From IMG/VR virus record IMGVR_UViG_2585427748_000017, positions 1-9,677 of that record: a DNA stretch of 9,677 bases. One strand, written 5' to 3'. The notes below the pieces were generated by a model. That model had not been told where the DNA came from and did no database searches. It saw only the letters and a list, made by a program, of their open reading frames with translations. This document shows, piece after piece, positions 1-9,677 of this stretch (positions are counted from its first letter, which is position 1; the number at the start of each line of letters is the position of its first letter). The position numbers and the translations under genes were made by a program. This stretch comes from a virus. Its lineage: Duplodnaviria > Heunggongvirae > Uroviricota > Caudoviricetes.

Positions 1-138
1 GTGTTTGATTTTAGCAAACTGATTCGGGAGATTCGAGTGATGGCTGAAAAATTATCCACCTGGAAGTTCATTCTTATCTGGCTGGTGTTTGTGATTATGG
101 CCTCCGGTTATTTCATCGGTCAGATACGCTGGTGGTGA
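1..138 (+). CDS. 3' end of an unidentified upstream gene (45 codons in window); C-terminal hydrophobic segment, stop 4 nt before Rz start
   Basis: Only frame 1 is open across 1-135 (frames 2 and 3 hit stops within the first 25 nt); stop TGA at 136-138 with Rz ATG at 140, suggesting translational coupling. Translation ...KLSTWKFILIWLVFVIMASGYFIGQIRWW ends in an approx 18-residue hydrophobic stretch. It does not resemble the C-terminus of lambda R or phage 21 R endolysin as I recall them. Function not assigned. Confidence 0.35.
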   Translation: MFDFSKLIREIRVMAEKLSTWKFILIWLVFVIMASGYFIGQIRWW

Positions 139-139
139 A

Positions 140-607
140 ATGAACCGCGTACTGTGCGTGGTCATCATTGCCCTGCTGGTGGCCTGTGGTGCGCTTAGTC
201 TGGGGCTGAATCATTACCGTGATAACGCCATAACCTACAAAGAGCAGCGCGATAAAAAAGTCAGTGAGCTGGAGCTGGCAAATGCAACCATTACTGATAT
301 GCAGCAGCGCCAGCGTGATGTTGCTGCACTTGATGCCAGATACTCGAGGGAATTAGCCGATGCGAGAGCTGAAAATGAAACTCTTCGCGCTGACGTTGCC
401 GCTGGTCACCGCAGCCTGCGGATCAACGCCACCTGTCCAGGTCCCGTGCGTGAAGCCACCGGCACCGCCCGCGTGGATAATGCAACCGGCCCCCAACTGG
501 CAGACACCGTTACACGGGATTATTTCACCCTCAGAGAGCGGCTGATGACGATGCAGAAGCAACTGGAAGGGGCACAGGACTATATCCGCACTCAGTGCCT
601 GAAATAA
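140..607 (+). CDS. Rz: Rz i-spanin (inner-membrane spanin subunit), lambda Rz homologue
   Basis: 155-aa ORF with N-terminal hydrophobic anchor (VLCVVIIALLVACGALSLGL) followed by NHYRDNAITYK...DMQQRQRDVAALDA...RDYFTLRERLMTMQKQLEG, which aligns along its length with lambda Rz as I recall it. Stop TAA 605-607. Contains an embedded +1-frame lipoprotein ORF (Rz1). Confidence 0.85.
   Translation: MNRVLCVVIIALLVACGALSLGLNHYRDNAITYKEQRDKKVSELELANATITDMQQRQRDVAALDARYSRELADARAENETLRADVAAGHRSLRINATCPGPVREATGTARVDNATGPQLADTVTRDYFTLRERLMTMQKQLEGAQDYIRTQCLK
360..545 (+). CDS. Rz1: Rz1 o-spanin (outer-membrane lipoprotein spanin subunit), fully embedded in Rz in another frame
   Basis: 61-aa ORF inside Rz: MRELKMKLFALTLPLVTAAC (signal peptide with lipobox-like TAAC) followed by a proline-rich mature part VKPPAPPAWIMQPAPNWQTPLHGIISPSESG, closely matching lambda Rz1 (…CVKPPPPPAWIMQPPPDWQTPLNGIISPSERG). 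Stop TGA 543-545. Confidence 0.8.
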   Translation: MRELKMKLFALTLPLVTAACGSTPPVQVPCVKPPAPPAWIMQPAPNWQTPLHGIISPSESG

Positions 608-957
608 GTTTTGCTGATGCGCGGTATTGTCGCCGTATCCCCGCATTAACAGAGACCGCAGCCCGACAGGGAGACTCCTCTGCGCGAGTGTGCGGGGATA
701 ATCAAAAACGATACACACCGGGGTTTACCGCGTTAACGGAGCGCGGCGTTGTCCCCTCATAGTCGCCTGTCCGGTGCGATGGTGGAAGAAGCCGGATGTT
801 TATCACTATTAATTGATGACACAGAAATGGATTCATTGAATTTCAGCACGTTTTTGTATTCGTGTTATTGAACATCTGTTTATTTTACTTTTAACATATT
901 GATAATAAAAAGAGCTGTAAATCTTTAGATGAGTCGATTTTGTCCGGGGAAGTTCAA

Positions 958-1098
958 ATGGATTTTATGCTGACGGTTTCTGGTGTGGTTATCCTGTCCA
1001 TTGCTTATACTGCAGATAAATATGGCTGCCATTTGTTATCACGTATTGGCGCTTATTGTTCGTTGATGCTGATTTTCTCGTCGCTTTTTTTTGAGTAA
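958..1098 (+). CDS. hypothetical small hydrophobic protein (46 aa), possible membrane peptide
   Basis: ATG at 958 preceded by GGGGA (945-949, 8-nt spacing); translation MDFMLTVSGVVILSIAYTADKYGCHLLSRIGAYCSLMLIFSSLFFE, stop TAA 1096-1098. Lies in an AT-rich island; candidate promoter TTGAAC (868-873) - 18 nt - TAACAT (892-897). Below the 60-aa cutoff of the supplied ORF track; coding status unproven. Confidence 0.3.
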   Translation: MDFMLTVSGVVILSIAYTADKYGCHLLSRIGAYCSLMLIFSSLFFE

Positions 1099-1230
1099 GT
1101 TATATTAATTATAACAAATAATTTTCTGTGTTATTTTTTCAGGCTATCCCGTCAGAGGGGAAGCCTGTACTGCCAGGGAGCGAATGGAAAACTGATGTGT
1201 CCGGTAACTGCGTGTTCTGTGAACACCATG

Positions 1231-1416
1231 TTACTTAATTATGTAATTCATACCCGAACTCTCTGTTGACAGCCTTCTTCTGCAGGCTTCAATAACCCAC
1301 GCTGAAAAGTTTCCTGAACCTTTCAGATCAAGAGCGATGTTAATTTGTTCAATCATCTGGTTTGGAAATCGGATGTTGCGGGTTGTTGTTCTGCGCGTTC
1401 TGTTTTTTGATGACAT
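1231..1416 (-). CDS. ylcI: small ribbon-helix-helix-like protein, YlcI-like (DUF3950 family) of DLP12-type prophages
   Basis: 61-aa minus-strand ORF MSSKNRTRRTTTRNIRFPNQMIEQINIALDLKGSGNFSAWVIEACRRRL..., with ATG at 1416-1414 and GGGGA 7 nt upstream on the minus strand. Basic N-terminus, short beta-strand (IRF), then two helices is the RHH pattern. Position immediately upstream of and divergent from cos/Nu1 matches ylcI-nohD in E. coli DLP12 as I recall it. Confidence 0.65.
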   Translation of the reverse strand: MSSKNRTRRTTTRNIRFPNQMIEQINIALDLKGSGNFSAWVIEACRRRLSTESSGMNYIIK

Positions 1417-1589
1417 AATGTTTCCCCATATTCAGTGTTGCTGATTTGTATTATCAGAAGTTGCTTTTACGTTAATTTGACGCAGATCAATTAATACGAT
1501 ACCTGCGTCATAATTGATTATTTCTCGTGGTTTGATGGCGTACACACATGTTGTGATAAACCTTATATAGATGATAATAATTATCATTT

Positions 1590-1850
1590 CGTGGGTCCTT
1601 TCCGGCGATCCGACCGGTTACGGGGCGGCGACCTCGCGCGTTTTCACTATTTATGAGATTTTTTGAGGGGGTGGTTGTTGTTTAATTGTTTGGTATATCT
1701 AATTGATAAGTAAGGTGAAAATAAAATAAATACAACAACCTTACGATGTGTTTTGATGTCGTCAATGCGAAAAATGTCAATGATATCAAATGGTTTTGCA
1801 AAAACACATGGTTGTTGTTTCGCTTTTTATCGATGACTTATGGAGAGGAG
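1590..1850. other. cos: cos packaging site: cosQ-side flank, cosN (12-nt cohesive end GGGCGGCGACCT at 1623-1634) and cosB region up to the Nu1 start
   Basis: Sequence ATAATTATCATTTCGTGGGTCCTTTCCGGCGATCCGACCGGTTACG|GGGCGGCGACCTCGCGCGTTTTCACTATTTATGA matches the lambda right-end/left-end junction nearly base for base (lambda: ...GGGTCCTTTCCGGCGATCCGACAGGTTACG|GGGCGGCGACCTCGCGGGTTTTCGCTATTTATGA). The downstream approx 215 bp before Nu1 carries direct repeats TGGTTGTTGTTT (1672-1683, 1809-1820) and GTCAATG (1761-1767, 1776-1782), candidate terminase/IHF binding elements. Confidence 0.85.
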
Positions 1851-2357
1851 ATGGCCTTTTTATTGAATAAAAGTGATATGGCCTCCTCCATCGGTATCTC
1901 TGTTCAGGCATTTGATAAATGGGGCGTTCCTCCTGTTGAACGTCGGGGGAGGGAAGTTTTATATGACGTTAAAACTGTACTGGAGATAGATCGCGAGCGG
2001 CGACAACACAATCAGAGAACACCTGATGACGGGGGAGAACTGGAGGAAAGGCTGCTTCGGGCCAGAGCTGAACTGACAGAAGAACAGGCTGTAGCTCAAA
2101 AACTTAAAAATCAGGTAACCGAAGGTAAGCTCATCGATTCAGACTTCTGCGTTTTCGCCCTCAGCAAACTGGCGATGGCATTGTCCAGTACGCTTGATTC
2201 CATTCCGTTATCCATGCAGCGACAGTTCCCGGATTTAACGCCACGTCATATTGACCATCTGAAAACCCTTATTGCAAAGGGCGCAAATCAGTGTGCGCGG
2301 GCAGGGGATAAATTACCGGATTTGCTGGATGAATATATCAGAGCAACAACTGAATAA
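1851..2357 (+). CDS. nu1: terminase small subunit (lambda gpNu1 homologue)
   Basis: ATG 1851 preceded by GGAGAGGAG. Translation MAFLLNKSDMASSIGISVQAFDKWGVPPVERRGREVLYD... aligns with lambda Nu1 (winged-HTH N-terminus, ...FALSKLA...LPLSMQRQFPDLTPRHIDHLK..., C-terminus LLDEYI). The 3' end overlaps the gpA start as in lambda. The ORF-track start at 1746 lies in cosB and is rejected. Confidence 0.85.
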   Translation: MAFLLNKSDMASSIGISVQAFDKWGVPPVERRGREVLYDVKTVLEIDRERRQHNQRTPDDGGELEERLLRARAELTEEQAVAQKLKNQVTEGKLIDSDFCVFALSKLAMALSSTLDSIPLSMQRQFPDLTPRHIDHLKTLIAKGANQCARAGDKLPDLLDEYIRATTE

Positions 2358-4257
2358 TATGGTGGCCGCCGTTTCGGTTGCGCTGCAGCCTCTGGTCAGG
2401 GTTGTACCGATGACGGCAGTTGAATGGGCTGACCAGTATTATTATCTGCCGAAAGAATCCTCATACGGTGACGGCGAATGGAAAACGCTGCCGTTCCAGA
2501 TCGCCATCATGAACAGTATGGGGAATGATCAGATCCGCACTGTTAATCTGATTAAATCTGCCCGTGTTGGCTATACAAAGATGTTGCTGGGAGTCGCCGG
2601 GTATTTTATTGAGCATAAATCCCGAAACAGTCTGCTTTTTCAGCCCACGGATTCTGCCGCTGAAGATTTTATGAAGTCTCACGTGGAGGCGACGATTCGG
2701 GACGTGCCATGCCTGAAAGATCTTTCCCCGTGGCTGGGTCGTAAACATCGTGACAATACTCTCACGCTGAAACGCTTTTCATCGGGGGTGGGCTTCTGGT
2801 GCCTGGGTGGTGCGGCAGCAAAAAACTACCGTGAAAAATCCGTGGACGTGGTCTGCTATGACGAACTTTCCTCGTTCGAGCCGGATGTCGAAAAAGAGGG
2901 CTCGCCAACCCTGCTGGGGGATAAGCGTATTGAGGGCTCGGTATGGCCAAAATCCATTCGCGGCTCGACGCCTAAAATAAAAGGCTCCTGCCAGATCGAA
3001 AAAGCGGCCAACGAGTCGGCGCATTTCATGCGTTTTTATGTGCCCTGCCCGCACTGTGGGGAGGCGCAGTATCTGAAATTTGGCGATGAGTCCACGCCTT
3101 TTGGCCTTAAATGGGAGAAGGACAGCCCCGAAAGCGTTTTCTACCTCTGTGAACATCATGGCTGCGTGATCCATCAGTCTGAGCTTGACCAGAGCAACGG
3201 GCGGTGGATCTGCGAAAACACGGGGATGTGGACCCGCGACGGTCTGACGTTTTTCAGCGCCGCGGATAATGAAATTCCGCCGCCGCGCTCCATCACATTC
3301 CATATCTGGACGGCGTACAGTCCGTTCACCACCTGGGTACAGATTGTCTATGACTGGCTGGATGCACTGAAAGATCCCAACGGCCTGAAAACCTTTGTGA
3401 ACACCACGCTGGGCGAGACCTGGGAAGAGGCCGTGGGCGAAAAACTCGATCACCAGGTACTGATGGATAAGGTTGTGCATTACACGGCGGCGGTGCCTGC
3501 CCGGGTGGTTTATCTGACGGCGGGCATTGACTCGCAGCGAAACCGTTTTGAGATGTATGTCTGGGGATGGGCACCGGGAGAGGAAGCTTTTCTGGTGGAT
3601 AAAATCATCATTATGGGCCGTCCCGATGAGGAAGAGACGCTGTTACGTGTGGATGCGGCGATCAACAAAAAATACTGCCATGCAGACGGAACCGAAATGA
3701 CCATTTCCCGTGTCTGCTGGGACACCGGGGGGATCGATGGTGAAATTGTCTATCAGAGGTCAAAAAAACACGGTGTTTTCCGGGTGCTGCCGGTAAAAGG
3801 CGCATCTGTCTATGGCAAGCCGGTGATCACCATGCCGAAAACCCGCAATCAGCGGGGCGTTTATCTGTGTGAAGTGGGGACGGACACCGCAAAAGAAATT
3901 CTCTATGCCCGTATGAAAGCCGAGCCCACGCCTGCGGATGAAGCCACGTCGTATGCCATCCGTTTTCCTGATGATCCGGAGATTTTTTCGCAGACAGAGG
4001 CGCAGCAACTGGTCGCGGAAGAGCTTGTGGAGAAGTGGGAAAAAGGAAAGATGCGTCTGCTGTGGGATAACAAAAAGCGGCGTAACGAAGCGCTGGACTG
4101 CCTGGTGTATGCCTACGCGGCATTACGTGTGTCCGTGCAACGCTGGCAGCTTGATCTGGCTGTACTGGCAAAATCCCGGGAAGAAGAGACGACCCGGCCA
4201 ACCCTTAAAGAACTGGCAGCGAAGCTGTCCGGAGGAGTGAATGGTTACAGTCGCTGA
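2329..4257 (+). CDS. A: terminase large subunit (lambda gpA homologue)
   Basis: Collinear with lambda gpA over the full length (TAVEWAD..YYLPKESSY, GFWCLGGAAAKNYREKSVDV, GDKRIEGSVWPKSIRGSTPK, CPHCGE.QYLKFGD, HIWTAYSPFTTWVQIV, CWDTGGID, KRRNEALDC, RWQLDL). ATG 2329 (MNISEQQ) corresponds to lambda MNISNSQ; the TTG at 2272 listed in the ORF track is an upstream artefact. Stop TGA 4255-4257. Confidence 0.95.
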   Translation: MNISEQQLNNMVAAVSVALQPLVRVVPMTAVEWADQYYYLPKESSYGDGEWKTLPFQIAIMNSMGNDQIRTVNLIKSARVGYTKMLLGVAGYFIEHKSRNSLLFQPTDSAAEDFMKSHVEATIRDVPCLKDLSPWLGRKHRDNTLTLKRFSSGVGFWCLGGAAAKNYREKSVDVVCYDELSSFEPDVEKEGSPTLLGDKRIEGSVWPKSIRGSTPKIKGSCQIEKAANESAHFMRFYVPCPHCGEAQYLKFGDESTPFGLKWEKDSPESVFYLCEHHGCVIHQSELDQSNGRWICENTGMWTRDGLTFFSAADNEIPPPRSITFHIWTAYSPFTTWVQIVYDWLDALKDPNGLKTFVNTTLGETWEEAVGEKLDHQVLMDKVVHYTAAVPARVVYLTAGIDSQRNRFEMYVWGWAPGEEAFLVDKIIIMGRPDEEETLLRVDAAINKKYCHADGTEMTISRVCWDTGGIDGEIVYQRSKKHGVFRVLPVKGASVYGKPVITMPKTRNQRGVYLCEVGTDTAKEILYARMKAEPTPADEATSYAIRFPDDPEIFSQTEAQQLVAEELVEKWEKGKMRLLWDNKKRRNEALDCLVYAYAALRVSVQRWQLDLAVLAKSREEETTRPTLKELAAKLSGGVNGYSR

Positions 4258-4447
4258 ACTACAGGCGCTGCGTCAGGCGCGCCTTGATTTATTAACCGGT
4301 AAACGGGTGGTGTCTGTCCAGAAAGATGGTCGCAGAATTGAATATACGGCGGCTTCTCTGGATGAGCTTAACCGGGCGATCAATGATGCGGAGTCGGTAC
4401 TGGGGACAACCCGACGTCGCCGTCGTCCGCTGGGAGTGAGGTTATGA
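4241..4447 (+). CDS. W: head-tail joining / head completion protein (lambda gpW homologue)
   Basis: 68-aa ORF with GGAGGAG 4 nt upstream. MVTVAELQALRQARLDLLTGKRVVSVQKDGRRIEYTAASLDEL... matches lambda gpW (…[27 protein letters not shown]…). Overlaps the gpA 3' end; stop TGA 4445-4447 overlaps the B start (ATGA). Confidence 0.85.
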   Translation: MVTVAELQALRQARLDLLTGKRVVSVQKDGRRIEYTAASLDELNRAINDAESVLGTTRRRRRPLGVRL

Positions 4448-6036
4448 AACGAACGCCTGTCCTGATTGATGTGAACGGCGTTCCGCTTCGTGAGAGTCTC
4501 AGCTACAACGGGGGCGGCGCAGGATTTGGCGGGCAAATGGCGGAGTGGTTGCCACCGGCGCAGAGTGCCGATGCGGCCCTGCTACCCGCGTTGCGTCTGG
4601 GGAATGCCCGGGCAGATGATCTGGTGCGCAATAACGGAATAGCGGCTAATGCGGTGGCTCTGCATAAGGATCACATTGTCGGGCATATGTTTCTGATCAG
4701 CTACCGTCCGAACTGGCGCTGGCTGGGGATGCGGGAGACCGCAGCAAAAAGTTTTGTCGATGAGGTGGAGGCGGCCTGGTCGGAATACGCCGAAGGGATG
4801 TTTGGTGAGATCGACGTGGAAGGAAAACGCACGTTCACGGAATTTATCCGTGAAGGTGTGGGCGTTCATGCGTTTAACGGCGAAATCTTTGTGCAGCCGG
4901 TCTGGGATACGGAGAGTACGCAACTGTTTCGTACGCGTTTTAAAGCCGTGAGTCCGAAACGGGTGGACACGCCTGGACACGGTATGGGGAACCGTTTTCT
5001 GCGGGCCGGTGTGGAGGTCGATCGATATGGCCGTGCCGTCGCGTACCATATTTGTGAGGACGATTTTCCGTTCTCTGGTAGTGGACGATGGGAACGGATC
5101 CCGCGTGAACTTCCCACCGGGCGTCCGGCCATGCTGCATATTTTCGAGCCGGTGGAGGACGGGCAGACCCGTGGAGCCAATCAGTTTTACAGCGTTATGG
5201 AACGGCTGAAGATGCTGGATTCCCTGCAGGCAACACAGCTTCAGTCGGCCATAGTGAAGGCGATGTATGCAGCGACGATTGAAAGTGAACTTGATACCGA
5301 AAAGGCCTTTGAATATATCGCCGGTGCGCCGCAGGGGCAGAAGGATAATCCGCTTATTAATATTCTGGATAAGTTCTCCACCTGGTATGACACGAATCAC
5401 GTGACGCTGGGCGGTGTCAAAATTCCGCACCTTTTCCCCGGTGATGATCTGAAACTTCAGACCGCGCAGGATTCAGACAATGGATTTTCGGCGCTTGAAC
5501 AGGCGCTGCTGCGGTATATCGCCGCCGGTCTTGGCGTTTCCTACGAACAGTTGTCCCGTGATTACTCGAAGGTCAGTTATTCAAGTGCCCGCGCCTCCGC
5601 CAATGAGTCGTGGCGCTATTTTATGGGGCGGCGAAAATTTATTGCGTCCCGGCTGGCCACGCAGATGTTTTCCTGCTGGCTGGAAGAGGCACTTCTTCGG
5701 GGGATTATTCGTCCGCCACGGGCACGGTTTGATTTTTATCAGGCGCGATCAGCCTGGTCACGGGCTGAGTGGATTGGAGCCGGAAGAATGGCCATTGACG
5801 GGCTCAAGGAGGTTCAGGAATCAGTGATGCGCATTGAGGCCGGACTGAGCACGTATGAGAAAGAGCTGGCGCTGATGGGCGAGGATTATCAGGACATTTT
5901 CCGCCAGCAGGTCAGGGAATCTGCAGAGCGGGAAAAAGCCGGACTCTCACGTCCGGTGTGGATAGCGCAGGCGTATCAGCAGCAGATAGCGGAGAGTCGC
6001 AGGCCGGAAGAGGAGACAACACCACGTGAGACGTAA
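4444..6036 (+). CDS. B: portal protein (lambda gpB homologue)
   Basis: 530-aa ORF collinear with lambda gpB ([140 protein letters not shown]). Confidence 0.95.
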
Positions 6037-7759
6037 TCTTTCACACATTATTGCCGCAGCATTCAATGAACCGCTGCTTCTGGAGCCCGCCTATGCGCGG
6101 GTTTTCTTTTGCGCGCTGGGGCGCGAGATGGGGGCAGCAAGTCTTTCGGTACCGCAACAGCAGGTACAGCTTGATGCTCCCGGAATGCTGGCTGAAACGG
6201 ACGAGTACATGGCCGGAGGTAAACGACCTGCCCGTGTTTACCGGGTGGTGAACGGTATTGCGGTACTGCCGATGAGCGGCACGCTGGTGCACCGGCTGGG
6301 GGGGATGCGGCCATTTTCCGGAATGACTGGCTATGACGGCATTGTCGCCTGTCTTCAGCAGGCAATGGCAGATAGCCAGGTGCGGGGCATACTGCTGGAC
6401 ATTGACAGTCCGGGCGGGCAGGCCGCCGGCGCGTTTGACTGCGCTGACATGATTTACCGCCTCCGTCAGCAGAAGCCGGTCTGGGCACTGTGCAATGACA
6501 CGGCCTGTTCTGCAGCCATGCTGCTGGCGTCGGCCTGCTCCCGACGGCTGGTTACCCAGACATCCCGTATCGGCTCCATTGGCGTGATGATGAGCCATGT
6601 CAGCTATGCCGGTCATCTGGCGCAGGCCGGTGTGGATATCACGCTGATTTATGCCGGGGCGCACAAGGTGGATGGCAATCAGTTTGAAGCGTTGCCGGCA
6701 GAGGTTCGCCAGGATATGCAGCAGCGGATTGATGCGGCGCACCGGATGTTTGCCGAAAAAGTGGCGATGTATACCGGGTTGTCTGTGGATGCGGTCACGG
6801 GAACAGAGGCCGCCGTTTTTGAAGGTCAGTCCGGCATTGAGGCCGGGCTGGCGGATGAATTAATCAATGCGTCGGATGCCATCAGTGTGATGGCCACGGC
6901 GCTGAACAGTAATGTCAGAGGAGGCACTATGCCGCAATTAACTGCAACGGAAGCCGCCGTGCAGGAGAACCAGCGAGTGATGGGGATCCTGACATGCCAG
7001 GAAGCGAAAGGACGTGAACAGCTTGCCACGATGCTGGCAGGGCAACAGGGCATGAGCGTTGAACAGGCCCGGGCGATTCTGGCCGCGGCGGCACCGCAGC
7101 AGCCGGTGGCATCCGCGCAGAGTGAAGCCGATCGCATTATGGCGTGTGAAGAAGCGAACGGTCGTGAACAACTGGCAGTAACGCTGGCGGCGATGCCGGA
7201 GATGACGGTGGAAAAAGCCCGCCCGATCCTGGCTGCTTCACCGCAGGCGAATGCCGGACCATCACTCCGTGATCAGATCATGGCCCTGGATGAGGCAAAA
7301 GGGGCTGAGGCGCAGGCTGAACAGCTGGCTGCCTGCCCGGGAATGACCGTGGAGAGCGCCCGGGCTGTGCTGGCTGCGGGATCAGGTACGGGGTCTGCCG
7401 GTGATCATACTCATGGTAATGGTATTCGTTGGCCAGGAGGCGGCGGTTCTGCGTTAGCATTTTATGATGGCGGTGGGTTCACTTATGTCCAGGATTCACA
7501 GTATCAAGTAAGCCCGGGGACTTCTTCCCGTAGATCGTATTATCAACGTATTCAGACACAGTCAGCAGGTGCTCATACCCACTCGCTGTCTGGTACTGCA
7601 GCAAGTTCTGGCGCACATGCACATACTGTAGGTATTGGTGCGCATACGCACTCCGTTGCGATTGGTTCACATGGACACACCATCACCGTTAACGCTGCTG
7701 GTAACGCGGAAAACACCGTCAAAAACATCGCATTTAACTATATTGTGAGGCTTGCATAA
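6026..7759 (+). CDS. C: chimeric ORF: gpC-like prohead protease (S49/SppA-type) with Nu3-like scaffold region, fused in frame near 7380-7400 to a side-tail-fibre (Stf-like) C-terminal His-box domain; likely a deletion remnant
   Basis: First approx 450 aa align with lambda gpC ([105 protein letters not shown], then the IMGIL..EA.GRE module). The last approx 125 aa (GDHTHGNG...[10 protein letters not shown]...[28 protein letters not shown]...[16 protein letters not shown]) carry repeated HxH motifs and the ending typical of lambdoid tail-fibre C-termini; the stop overlaps the tfa start (TAATG). GC content falls at the junction. The start is GTG 6026 (GAGGAG 10 nt upstream) overlapping the B stop; exact start uncertain. 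Confidence 0.75.
6929..7759 (+). CDS. nu3: nested in-frame internal start corresponding to lambda Nu3 scaffolding protein (here continuing into the fused tail-fibre domain)
   Basis: In-frame ATG 6929-6931 preceded by GAGGAGG (6918-6924) that is itself coding (R-G-G-T-M); this mirrors the lambda C/Nu3 arrangement (…SGGRM TKETQ…), where Nu3 starts inside C in the same frame. Expression not verifiable from sequence. Confidence 0.4.
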
Positions 7760-8343
7760 TGGCATTCAGAATGAGTGAACAAGCACGGACCATAAAAATT
7801 TATAATCTGCTGGCCGGAACTAATGAATTTATTGGTGAAGGTGACGCATATATTCCGCCTCATACAGGTCTGCCAGCAAACAGTACCGATATTGCACCAC
7901 CAGATATTCCTGCTGGCTTTGTGGCTGTTTTCAACAGTGATGAGGCATCGTGGCATCTCGTTGAAGACCATCGGGGTAAAACGGTTTATGACGTAGCGTC
8001 AGGGGACGAGTTATTTATTTCTGAACTCGGTCCGTTACCGGAAAATGTTACCTGGTTATCGCCGGAAGGGGAGTTTCAGAAGTGGAACGGCACAGCCTGG
8101 GTGAAGGATACGGAAGCAGAAAAAATGTTCCGGATCCGGGAGGCGGAAGAAACAAAAAACAACCTGATGCAGGTAGCCAGTGAGCATATTGCGCCGCTTC
8201 AGGATGCTGCAGATCTGGAAATTGCAACGGAGGAAGAAACCTCATTGCTGGAAGCCTGGAAAAAGTATCGGGTGTTGCTGAACCGTGTTGATACATCAAC
8301 TGCACCTGATATTGAGTGGCCTACGAACCCTGTCAGGGAGTAA
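7759..8343 (+). CDS. tfa: tail fibre assembly protein (Tfa; lambda Tfa / Mu U / T4 gp38 family)
   Basis: 194-aa [54 protein letters not shown]...[42 protein letters not shown], which I recognise as the Tfa proteins of E. coli lambdoid prophages. The start overlaps the upstream tail-fibre stop (TAATG), the usual stf-tfa coupling. Confidence 0.85.
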
Positions 8344-8391
8344 TCATTGGGATTATGCCGCAGCACGTCTTAAGCAAGAACGTGCTGCGGT
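8178..8391 (+). repeat. direct repeat copy A (tfa 3' end plus downstream hairpin); partner at 9227-9441
   Basis: By eye about 210 bp align between 8178-8391 and 9227-9441 at an offset of about 1049 bp with most positions identical, including the stop codon, TCATTGGGATTATGCCGCAG and the ACGTGCTGCGGTT hairpin arm. Exact identity not computed. Confidence 0.8.
8358..8390. other. perfect 11-bp inverted repeat (CCGCAGCACGT / ACGTGCTGCGG) with 11-nt loop, 15 nt after the tfa stop and 8 nt beyond the convergent methyltransferase stop; possible bidirectional terminator or recombination/junction element
   Basis: Left arm 8358-8368 and right arm 8380-8390 are exact reverse complements. A T6 run follows after a 10-nt gap on the + strand, so this is not a textbook intrinsic terminator. 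A near-identical copy with a 1-nt bulge occurs after the second tfa copy (9407-9440). Confidence 0.3.
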
Positions 8392-8397
8392 TGGATG

Positions 8398-9066
8398 CTA
8401 TTTTTTCCCTGAAGCGGAAAACATTACTACAGTACCTTGAACCTTGGTTTTAACATTCTCGAAATGCTCTGAGAGTATATGTGTTAAGCCTTCTTCGGAA
8501 TCTTTTGTGTTTGAAAAGATGCCTTTCTGATTGTAAATGCGCATCAGTTTTTGACCGAAGCTATTGTGCACAACTCCATCGCCAAGAATTGTGGCTCCGT
8601 ATAGAGTTCCATCGTCAGTTAAGGCCTGCGCCGCATTGCGTATTACACAGCTTTTTGTAGATATATTTCCAGGCAGGCAGTGAAGAAGGTAAAACATGGA
8701 AATGGAATCAAATTGACCATGTAACGCCGCGGGATAAGGTTCAAAAACATCATGGCTAATTTTATGTTTAATTTTTGATTCCCCAGCCCTTGTAGATGCC
8801 GCGTTCAGGCTAGCTTCGTTCAAATCCATTAAAGATATCAGACTACTCTCAGGTACGTGAGTAAGGTAAAACCCAGTTCCAACACCAATATCCAGATGGT
8901 TGTTACCTACATGTTCCAGAAAGTGTGGAAGAAGGTGTTCCTTTGTAGGACATCCCCATGCAAGCCGATTTGATACTCCCAAAACCCACCAGTCATAAAG
9001 CTTTAGGGTAAGTGGTGTGTAAATTTTAGCCCCATCATCTGTGTTTTTTTTCATTGATTTCACCAT
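8398..9066 (-). CDS. ybcY: class I SAM-dependent methyltransferase (Rossmann fold), YbcY-like prophage moron
   Basis: 222-aa minus-strand ORF with methyltransferase motif I LDIGVGTGFY, an acidic residue ending the next strand (SLMDLNE) and a motif II-like FDSISMFYLLHCLPG. No DPPY/NPPY motif, so not obviously a DNA N6-adenine methyltransferase. Visibly more AT-rich than the flanking tfa and head genes. The position between two tfa copies on the opposite strand matches tfaD-ybcY-tfaX in DLP12 as I recall it. The start may be the second ATG (9054, MKKNTDD) rather than 9066. Confidence 0.7.
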   Translation of the reverse strand: MVKSMKKNTDDGAKIYTPLTLKLYDWWVLGVSNRLAWGCPTKEHLLPHFLEHVGNNHLDIGVGTGFYLTHVPESSLISLMDLNEASLNAASTRAGESKIKHKISHDVFEPYPAALHGQFDSISMFYLLHCLPGNISTKSCVIRNAAQALTDDGTLYGATILGDGVVHNSFGQKLMRIYNQKGIFSNTKDSEEGLTHILSEHFENVKTKVQGTVVMFSASGKK

Positions 9067-9122
9067 GTTATAGTTTTATTTGTGAATTAAATCAATTATG
9101 GCGATGAATTACAAGGGGTTAA

Positions 9123-9392
9123 ATGCTGCCGCAGCATAGCGATATTGAAATAGCCTGGTATGCTTCGATACAGCAGGAGCCGAATGGCTGGAAGACCGTC
9201 ACCACACAGTTCTACATCCAGGAATTCAGTGAGTATATTGCGCCACTGCAGGATGCTGTAGATCTGGAAATCGCAACGGAGGAAGAAAGATCGTTGCTGG
9301 AGGCATGGAATAAATATCGGGTATTGTTGAATCGTGTTGATACATCAACTGCACCTGATATTGAGTGGCCTGCAAATCCTGTCAGGGAGTAA
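9123..9392 (+). CDS. tfaX: truncated tail fibre assembly protein copy (TfaX-like; C-terminal Tfa domain with unrelated 35-aa N-terminus)
   Basis: 89-aa ORF; the C-terminal 54 aa ([54 protein letters not shown]) are near-identical to the C-terminus of the 7759-8343 Tfa, while the N-terminus [35 protein letters not shown] is different. ATG 9123 with AAGGGG 4 nt upstream. Probably a remnant of a second tail-fibre cassette. Confidence 0.65.
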
Positions 9393-9441
9393 TCATTGGG
9401 ATTATGCCGCAGACACGTCGTATGCAGGAACGTGCTGCGGT
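9227..9441 (+). repeat. direct repeat copy B (tfaX 3' end plus downstream hairpin); partner at 8178-8391
   Basis: See copy A. The two copies bracket the opposite-strand methyltransferase gene. Confidence 0.8.
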
Positions 9442-9506
9442 TAGTTTGTGAGCTTTCGATAGTGGTTGTTATTTTTGCCCTTATTTGTTCCGGAGGCCAT
9501 GGTTCA

Positions 9507-9677
9507 ATGGTCCGTCTGCCCCCTGTGGTGATGTCAGCAAAATCAGCCACTGCGCGAACCACAATAGCCCGGGAAGATGCTGAAGATCACCAGGTAAAGC
9601 TATCAGCGCAGAAACTGGAAGAACTGCTCGCATCAATGGTTAAGGATGAGGTTGATCGCAATGATGGGATTTATTGA
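9507..9677 (+). CDS. hypothetical small protein (56 aa), charged and probably helical
   Basis: ATG 9507 with GGAGG (9493-9497) 9 nt upstream; translation MVRLPPVVMSAKSATARTTIAREDAEDHQVKLSAQKLEELLASMVKDEVDRNDGIY; stop TGA 9675-9677 at the window edge. The longer TTG-initiated ORF in the track (9396) starts inside the tfa repeat and is rejected. No family recognised. Confidence 0.35.
   Translation: MVRLPPVVMSAKSATARTTIAREDAEDHQVKLSAQKLEELLASMVKDEVDRNDGIY

Follow-up and report, generated by a model that had tools for sequence, protein, structure and literature searches.

In-frame fusion of a prohead protease/scaffold gene to a tail-fibre gene 3' end, a probable deletion scar in an Escherichia coli ompW prophage

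We analysed a stretch of 9,677 nucleotides (the window) from a prophage of E. coli 7-233-03_S3_C1 (contig JORO01000073.1) and found that one of its ORFs is chimeric. This ORF (6026..7759, plus strand, GTG start, 577 aa; WP_077760556.1 / KEM76751.1) consists of aa 1-454 of a phage-21-type gp5, the equivalent of lambda gpC, followed in frame by aa 913-1035 of a tail fibre protein, Stf. The original prediction had proposed an in-frame fusion of a prohead protease/scaffold to a tail-fibre C-terminal domain, and PHROGs, PDB and DNA identity agree with it. We consider it highly probable (about 90%) that the ORF is the scar of a single illegitimate deletion within a lambdoid prophage in ompW with a phage-21-type head module, and that it represents ordinary prophage decay. 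That the chimera might be a tolerated remnant had been allowed for from the start, and this is now the best-supported reading.

The protease/scaffold-derived part covers 6026..7388 on the plus strand (aa 1-454), as delimited by Pfam, PHROGs and alignment to intact C genes. Both expected kinds of match were recovered for this part, Peptidase_S49 (PF01343) at aa 146-293 (Pfam, E 1.4e-35) and phage C protein, in the form of the head maturation protease family phrog_53 over aa 1-454 (PHROGs, E 2.6e-202). Collinearity with lambda gpC had been proposed for about 450 aa; the length held, with a split into 454 and 123 aa, and the type needed refinement. In tblastn searches of phage records, aa 1-454 were 97.4% identical in amino acids to phage 21 gp5, and lambda-type records reached only 54% over aa 3-344. 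Strain Ecol_AZ146 encodes an intact C protein of 501 aa, and aa 1-454 of the chimera match it except for one substitution, V83M. The length of 501 aa is that of intact C proteins of the phage-21 subtype; identity of the chimera to intact C alleles stops at aa 454, and the final 47 aa (KAEPVSAST...MLMAMP) are gone. The C-terminus of intact C is common to protease and scaffold, and it is incomplete in the chimera.

Within this part we mapped the phage 21 annotation onto the window and found a nested, in-frame scaffold gene, the equivalent of phage 21 gene 6 and lambda Nu3, at 6929..7759 on the plus strand. Its ATG at 6929 lies at the position of the phage 21 gene 6 start and is preceded by the ribosome-binding site GAGGAGG at 6918-6924. 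The nested ORF would encode a 276-aa scaffold'-'Stf fusion (153 + 123 aa). The scaffold region contains three diverged repeats of about 45 aa each, assigned from the phage 21 record M81255 and all on the plus strand: the Tri1 box (6996..7099), the second Tri box (7136..7246) and the Tri3 box (7277..7390). The deletion junction falls at the 3' edge of Tri3, such that all three repeats are retained and just the 47-aa tail that follows them is lost.

The tail-fibre-derived part occupies 7388..7759 on the plus strand (aa 455-577). Its DNA is 100% identical to the stf 3' end of the ompW prophage of strain UTI89, and its protein sequence is identical to residues 913-1035 of the annotated 1035-aa tail fibre of that prophage. 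Residues 455-577 matched tail-fibre families, for example phrog_295 (PHROGs, E 4e-40), and the final 68 aa, with the HxH boxes and the conserved terminal sequence, matched the C-terminus of T4 gp37 (residues 175-242 of the PDB 2XGF chain, E 7e-24). The tail-fibre families expected for this part were thus recovered from PHROGs and the PDB, but Pfam gave no model match to it at E <= 0.01, and the assignment therefore rests on DNA identity, PHROGs and PDB. These three lines leave little room for the possibility, raised with the original prediction, that the C-terminal part is something other than a tail fibre.

Alignment with T4 gp37 located the breakpoint within the fibre structure. The C-terminus of the intact parental Stf aligns with gp37 residues 799-1026 (E 5e-84), and the breakpoint maps to approximately gp37 residue 923, such that the fibre fragment corresponds to about residues 923-1026. 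In T4 gp37 the collar domain D10 is formed by residues 811-881 and 1010-1026, and the needle domain D11 by residues 882-1009 (PMC6957217). Because of where the breakpoint lies relative to these limits, half of the collar is missing from the fragment, as is most of the needle's ascending strand; aligned with gp37, the lost residues are the equivalents of D10 residues 811-881 and of stem residues 882-922. The first 912 of the 1035 Stf residues are absent, including the N-terminal tail-attachment domain and the shaft, and five of the seven HxH boxes are retained together with the variable receptor-binding tip. Judged from this homology, the fibre tip of the chimera is incomplete and probably would not form a trimeric, iron-bound needle.

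Base-level alignment to intact C and stf genes placed the deletion junction at 7387..7388, within the interval of 7380-7400 that had been predicted. The window resembles intact C genes up to position 7388, and from 7387 onward it is 100% identical to the 3' end of UTI89 stf. The two parental sequences, GATCAGGTA/AGGCAG in the C gene and GGCTCTA/CGGGGTC in stf, have in common a 2-bp TA microhomology at the join. We detected no longer homology at the breakpoint in this alignment, the flanking matches being at chance level by inspection, and a repeat search around the junction returned nothing beyond the diverged Tri repeats. Homologous or site-specific recombination at the breakpoint was rejected, as no repeat or homology longer than TA was found. 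Furthermore, the fall in GC content that had been noted across the join was confirmed, from 0.64 in the 300 nt to its left to 0.52 in the 300 nt to its right. No RNA element accounts for the region; the only Rfam match in the window, IS009, lies within tfa.

Upstream on the plus strand, the small terminase (Nu1 type, 1851-2357), the large terminase (2329-4257) and gpW (4241-4447) are full length compared with intact relatives. An intact, 530-aa portal gene of lambda B type (4444..6036, plus strand) lies directly upstream of the chimera and overlaps its start by 11 nt, a position expected for a gpC/gp5 gene. No capsid genes are left in the locus. Downstream, the TAA stop of the chimeric ORF and the ATG of tfa have one base in common at 7759, giving the TAATG overlap that had been noted. 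This tfa gene (7759..8343, plus strand), for the tail fibre assembly chaperone, is intact (194 aa; Caudo_TAP, E 1.3e-44). The right end of the prophage carries cargo, a ybcY-like class I SAM-dependent methyltransferase gene on the minus strand (8398..9066) and a truncated, tfaX-like second copy of tfa on the plus strand (9123..9392, 89 aa). The order of the right flank is 'ompW-yciE-yciF-trpA, the same as in UTI89, which places the prophage in ompW beside the trp operon. The contig starts just 119 bp left of the window, and Q, the late promoter, the immunity region and the integrase gene would lie beyond it.

Comparison with intact prophages in ompW gave the size and content of the missing interval. 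The left arm of the window (1-7388) is collinear with intact prophages and 98.2% identical over its whole length to the ompW prophage of strain B2.3. Over the right arm (7387-9677), identity is 100% to the ompW prophage of UTI89 and 99.6% to that of B2.3. The two endpoints are 17,358 bp (UTI89) and 17,342 bp (B2.3) apart in these collinear prophages. Intact relatives encode a separate 501-aa C protein and a tail fibre of about 1000 aa, with D, E and the tail genes between them. The interval comprises 47 C codons, 17 whole genes (D, E, FI, FII, Z, U, V, G, T, H, M, L, K, I, one hypothetical gene, J and lom) and 912 stf codons. The original prediction was correct that the head-shell and tail module is missing between C and stf, but its figure of roughly 15 kb was too low, the relatives giving about 17.35 kb. 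Along the left arm, which is a mosaic, different relatives give the best match from one 500-bp segment to the next, and no single candidate for the exact parent prophage emerged; the deleted length is for this reason an estimate from relatives.

We then considered how widely the junction is distributed. A set of 5,426 complete E. coli genomes did not contain it, and scanning for the exact 24-nt junction sequence in contigs from metagenomes, species-representative genomes and viruses gave no match. When the 577-aa protein was searched by tblastn against 50,697 phage records, no place covered at least 80% of it, and the best matches stopped at aa 454. The fusion is therefore not the normal architecture of real phages, including intact ones that carry D, E and tail genes elsewhere. 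A wide spread in E. coli was likewise rejected; the sole match at the level of at least 80% among the complete genomes, in strain TW14425, is a different deletion. At 90% identity the protein forms a singleton cluster. A junction-spanning query recovered one other such protein, P0002, truncated by a contig end and present on six contigs. The one contig of these six that was read, from GCA_050850475.1, matches at 100% identity along 10.58 kb that take in the trp genes and the junction, which shows that clonal relatives yielded the same join in independent assemblies. Every carrier is a draft assembly. The absence of the junction from the genome and phage sets argues for a recent deletion confined to one lineage. 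NCBI names the protein 'S49 family peptidase' with nothing flagging a chimera, as was anticipated for an annotation pipeline, and we found no description of the junction in the open-access literature searched.

The draft status of every carrier would also be compatible with an assembly or sequencing artefact, a contig that joins two non-contiguous prophage regions. E. coli genomes contain several near-identical lambdoid prophages, which break and confuse assemblies, and the contigs in question do end inside such repeats. However, the 7-233-03_S3_C1 contig has this junction in common with six contigs from other assemblies, and the right arm runs unbroken into the correct chromosomal flank. False joins by graph assemblers arise where repeats of k-mer length are shared, and the arms have just 2 bp in common at the join, so the overlap itself counts against a misassembly. 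We regard an artefact as extremely unlikely. We place equally little weight on a chromosomal rearrangement by illegitimate recombination between two co-resident prophages, in place of a deletion within one. The C segment is closest (99.6-100%) to a prophage of Ecol_AZ146 at another chromosomal position, the right arm is instead identical to the UTI89 ompW prophage, and the left flank lies outside the contig, all of which would fit such an exchange. Yet the intact ompW prophages of B2.3 and UTI89 share the gene order on both sides of the join, the B2.3 prophage resembles the whole left arm, and a segment-wise mosaic is normal for homologous exchange among lambdoid prophages (PMC3945230). We also reason that an illegitimate join at 2 bp is likelier over 17 kb than over hundreds of kilobases.

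A further question was whether the fusion has been put to use. The chimera, the nested 276-aa form or both might be made with Tfa and benefit the host as a Tfa-folded tip tethered to a protease/scaffold, for example by receptor masking against related phages, by exclusion or as an adhesin that is secreted or released on lysis; alternatively, the prophage, without capsid and tail genes, might persist as a helper-dependent element. Several features are compatible with exaptation: the frame is open over 577 codons, the GTG at 6026, the nested ATG at 6929 with its ribosome-binding site and the cognate tfa are all intact, and the variable tip is kept with most of its HxH boxes. The undamaged terminase, W and portal ORFs would also suit a helper-dependent element. 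Against this, the protein is a singleton found only in clonal drafts and in none of the complete genomes or phage records, and its lack of divergence gives no basis for measuring selection. One join in three should be in frame by chance; that of the sister deletion in TW14425 is not, and the counterpart in the K-12 cryptic prophage DLP12 is annotated as a terminase pseudogene overlapping tfaD. In addition, by homology to gp37, the collar of the fibre fragment has lost its N-terminal half and the needle most of its ascending strand. We judge a host-beneficial role for either ORF, or a helper-dependent life of the prophage, to be very unlikely.

The reading we prefer, a deletion scar within the ompW prophage, would require one event. 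C codon 454 would have been joined to stf codon 913 at the TA microhomology, and about 17.35 kb, made up of the last 47 C codons, 17 whole genes and the first 912 stf codons, would have been removed in one step. We infer that the mechanism belongs to the class of microhomology-mediated illegitimate recombination. With the capsid and tail genes deleted, the prophage is unable to build capsids or tails; as the join is in frame, which chance alone would give one time in three, the 577-aa ORF and the nested 276-aa ORF stay open. Both ORFs are by-products, and nothing points to selection. The full-length neighbours (terminase subunits, W, portal and tfa) and the one-residue difference in C are consistent with a recent event in one clonal lineage, and the open frame and intact packaging genes would then reflect this recency rather than selection. 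Transcription of the late operon, should it ever occur, would give a product with an intact S49 core, no protease/scaffold C-terminal tail and an incomplete fibre tip. From its sequence, a working bifunctional protein is unlikely, and the chimera presumably has no function.

This locus offers a clean, base-resolved case of a lambdoid prophage made defective in one step, by a 17-kb deletion at a 2-bp microhomology. The in-frame scar has produced a plausible-looking ORF, and chimeras of this sort can find their way into family alignments and domain-architecture surveys as contaminants. The remnant retains an intact tfa and the receptor-specifying stf 3' end; experiments with K-12 Rac and Qin have demonstrated that infecting lambdoid phages can recombine with the stf/tfa of defective prophages (PMC3945230). 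The locus raises no new biological question unless the fusion protein proves to be made and active.

Each half of the chimera has a known counterpart. Like phage 21 gene 5 with its nested gene 6, it contains the S49 domain, an internal gene-6 start with a ribosome-binding site and three Tri boxes. In phage 21, however, the native protein has 501 aa and the decoration and capsid genes come next, whereas the chimera carries 123 tail-fibre residues in place of the last 47 aa and is followed by no capsid genes. With the tip of T4 gp37 and lambdoid Stf it shares the HxH iron-box motifs, a near-identical C-terminal 68 aa and a tfa chaperone gene downstream; unlike them, it has no shaft and no N-terminus for tail attachment, and it has lost the first half of the collar together with two of three ascending HxH boxes.

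Similar deletions are known from two other prophage remnants. DLP12 of K-12 (nohD-aaaD-tfaD-ybcY-tfaX) is a lambdoid remnant that lost its head and tail genes to an internal deletion, which brought a packaging/head-gene fragment beside the tail-fibre-assembly region, and it carries the same right-end cargo, an opposite-strand methyltransferase gene followed by a truncated second tfa. It differs in its chromosomal site and in its endpoints, the left one in terminase gene A and the right one inside tfa (equivalent to window position 7905), and it has an annotated pseudogene overlapping tfaD rather than a long open fusion. By comparison, the 7-233-03_S3_C1 prophage has kept W, the portal gene and most of C, and its join is in frame. 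The TW14425 remnant (NZ_CP127265.1, 1610-3807) is an independent deletion in the same prophage type. Here too a head gene is joined to the very 3' end of stf, in the same allele, and the same tfa and methyltransferase cargo follows. Its left endpoint, however, lies 150 nt into the major capsid gene E and its right endpoint within the final ~110 nt of stf (equivalent to window position 7650); the BLAST alignments of its arms overlap by 9 bp at the junction, and its join, which is out of frame, has been annotated as two pseudogene fragments.

The 577-aa ORF at 6026..7759 (+) joins a prohead protease/scaffold protein (C in lambda, gp5 in phage 21) to the C-terminus of a side tail fibre (Stf), which confirmed the original prediction. 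Pfam placed Peptidase_S49 at aa 146-293 (E 1.4e-35), and aa 1-454 matched phrog_53, head maturation protease (PHROGs, E 2.6e-202). The remaining residues, aa 455-577, matched tail-fibre families, e.g. phrog_295 (E 4e-40), and are identical to residues 913-1035 of Stf in UTI89, which carries an intact prophage of this type. The last 68 aa also matched the C-terminus of the T4 long tail fibre gp37 (PDB 2XGF, E 7e-24), HxH boxes and terminal motif included. These lengths refine the anticipated split at about residue 450, with 125 aa beyond it, to 454 + 123 aa. Collinearity with lambda gpC had been proposed for about 450 aa; phage 21 gp5 is 97.4% identical to aa 1-454 and lambda-type phage records gave a 54% match limited to aa 3-344, indicating that the head module is of phage-21 and not lambda type.

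Mapping of the phage 21 annotation placed gene 6, the nested scaffold gene equivalent to Nu3, at ATG 6929 with a GAGGAGG ribosome-binding site ahead of it, and identified the scaffold-like repeat region seen earlier as three 'Tri' repeats (6996-7099, 7136-7246 and 7277-7390). A nested scaffold-Stf fusion is therefore predicted to be encoded as well. The fusion keeps the S49 core and all three repeats and lacks the last 47 residues common to protease and scaffold; the capsid protein on which these two act is also missing from the locus.

The breakpoint could be placed precisely. When 5,426 complete E. coli genomes were searched with megablast, intact C genes were matched in their thousands and the best alignments stopped at ORF nucleotide 1366. 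From 7387 on, the window matches UTI89 and many other strains at 100% identity, across the 3' end of a tail-fibre gene encoding 1035 aa and across tfa, the tail-fibre assembly chaperone gene. At the join the C gene reads ...GATCAGGTA|AGGCAG..., stf reads ...GGCTCTA|CGGGGTC... and the window reads ...GATCAGGTACGGGGTC...; TA alone (7387-7388) is common to both arms, within the 7380-7400 interval first suggested. The in-frame join and its GC drop were likewise borne out (0.64 to 0.52).

The window corresponds to positions 120-9796 of contig JORO01000073.1 from E. coli 7-233-03_S3_C1, which begins 119 bp further left, with the late promoter and Q region outside it. The prophage end is followed by an ompW fragment, yciE, yciF and the trp operon; ompW is a documented integration site of lambda-like prophages (PMC8112680). 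Collinear, apparently complete prophages occupy ompW in UTI89 and B2.3, where the two endpoints are 17,358 and 17,342 bp apart, respectively, supporting the reading of the join as a deletion scar. The missing interval is thus large, as expected, but measures about 17.35 kb instead of roughly 15 kb. In UTI89 it comprises 47 codons of C, 17 whole genes (D, E, FI, FII, Z, U, V, G, T, H, M, L, K, I, one hypothetical, J and lom) and 912 codons of stf. The right arm is 100% identical to UTI89 throughout. In 500-bp segments of the left arm (1-7388), the best match switches among the Ecol_AZ146, B2.3, TW14425 and UTI89 prophages: 1-1500 is 99.8-100% identical to AZ146, with UTI89 at 86.8-88.4% or unmatched, and B2.3 is the sole match among the compared prophages at 2001-2500. 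The exact parent prophage was not found, as the closest relative of the left arm shifts every few hundred bases; such a fine patchwork is the usual lambdoid mosaic.

The window as a whole covers the end of a lambdoid prophage's late operon. Rz/Rz1 lysis genes (140-607) are separated from the small terminase gene by a low-GC spacer (750-1800, GC 0.37-0.41), which presumably contains the cos site and carries a 61-aa DUF3950 gene of the YlcI/YnfO family (ylcI-like, 1231-1416, minus strand). Next come the genes for both terminase subunits (small, then large), gpW and a portal protein of lambda type (1851-6036), the end of the portal gene overlapping the GTG start of the fusion ORF by 11 nt. As predicted, tfa (7759..8343) comes next with a stop/start overlap, TAA and ATG sharing one base at 7759. 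Beyond it are a SAM-dependent methyltransferase gene (8398..9066, minus strand) and a second, truncated tfa (9123..9392). The methyltransferase gene, opposite in orientation, is flanked by direct repeats of the tfa 3' end (8178-8392 and 9227-9442, ~215 bp, 89.8% identical). A full-length Rfam match to IS009 (RF02111, 8102-8300 (+), 223.8 bits) lies wholly inside the tfa 3' half; in this instance the 'RNA family' match falls on conserved coding DNA of tfa.

Over its whole length, the C-terminus of the intact parental Stf can be aligned with T4 gp37 799-1026 (E 5e-84), which puts the breakpoint near gp37 residue 923. The gp37 collar domain, D10, consists of residues 811-881 and 1010-1026, with the needle D11 (882-1009) inserted in it and seven histidine-coordinated iron ions along its length (PMC6957217). 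The tip, the descending strand and five of the seven HxH boxes remain in the fibre fragment. Because it has lost the first half of the collar and the greater part of the ascending strand, it seems unlikely to fold as the native trimer, even in the presence of Tfa. The Stf tip (37479-38255 of the UTI89 locus against 2XGF; window ~7410-7560) is longer than that of gp37 and unrelated in sequence, with conserved HxH strands flanking it; it is the expected hypervariable receptor-binding head, retained whole in the fusion.

The 577-aa protein (KEM76751.1 / WP_077760556.1) clusters alone at 90% identity and bears the public name 'S49 family peptidase', the kind of miscall that had been foreseen. With a junction-spanning 121-aa query, the only other join-crossing protein was P0002 (192 aa, cut at the contig end, six contigs). 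The one of these contigs examined, from GCA_050850475.1, is 100% identical over 10.58 kb, trp genes included, indicating that the junction was assembled independently, but in clonal relatives. The junction occurs in 0 of the 5,426 complete E. coli genomes, and exact-match scans found none in metagenome, species-representative genome or viral contigs. It is also missing from 50,697 phage records: a check there for the same architecture gave no place covering at least 80% of the protein.

A single illegitimate deletion at the 2-bp microhomology would have joined C to stf, and such an event explains everything observed; the in-frame outcome has an expected chance of one in three. An assembly artefact is unlikely, since independent assemblies show the same junction and the arms overlap by 2 bp; false joins generally arise at long shared repeats and not at so short an overlap. 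Rearrangement between prophages is less parsimonious, given that gene order on both sides is the same in intact ompW prophages. All neighbouring genes are full length, and the C-derived portion barely differs from intact alleles (one substitution, V83M, against the 501-aa C protein of Ecol_AZ146). These features fit a recent deletion, and they leave no divergence from which to infer selection. Functional exaptation of the fusion protein, for which the open frame and intact tfa are the sole support, is argued against by a distribution that is clonal and singleton.

Comparable scars were found elsewhere. An E. coli protein met incidentally (P0021, 182 aa, 40.8-kb contig), annotated 'phage portal protein', is an in-frame portal-gp5 scar in which ~71 N-terminal portal residues (..NGIAANAV|) run directly into ~110 C-terminal gp5/C residues. 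In TW14425 (NZ_CP127265.1; 9948-10198 of the locus), a prophage of the same type has independently undergone a deletion that fused the initial 150 nt of E, the major capsid gene, to the final ~110 nt of the stf allele found here (right arm from about window 7650 onward). The BLAST alignments of its arms overlap by 9 bp, and tfa and methyltransferase cargo lie downstream, as in the window. That join breaks the reading frame, and its annotation is a pair of pseudogene fragments. In K-12 DLP12 (5355-6098 of the locus), the terminase-A pseudogene aaaD overlaps truncated tfaD. The right endpoints of the three independent structural-module deletions, in the window, TW14425 and DLP12 (window equivalents 7387, 7650 and 7905), fall within ~520 bp at the stf 3' / tfa 5' end, and the left endpoints are scattered over C, E and A, respectively. 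This clustering could reflect retention of right-end cargo, or it could be pure ascertainment bias, TW14425 and DLP12 having been found through the same region. The fusion is noteworthy mainly as an annotation chimera left unflagged. In biological terms it is a commonplace scar of prophage decay, of the kind seen in DLP12, whose tfaD-ybcY-tfaX arrangement matches the tfa, methyltransferase and truncated tfa of the window.
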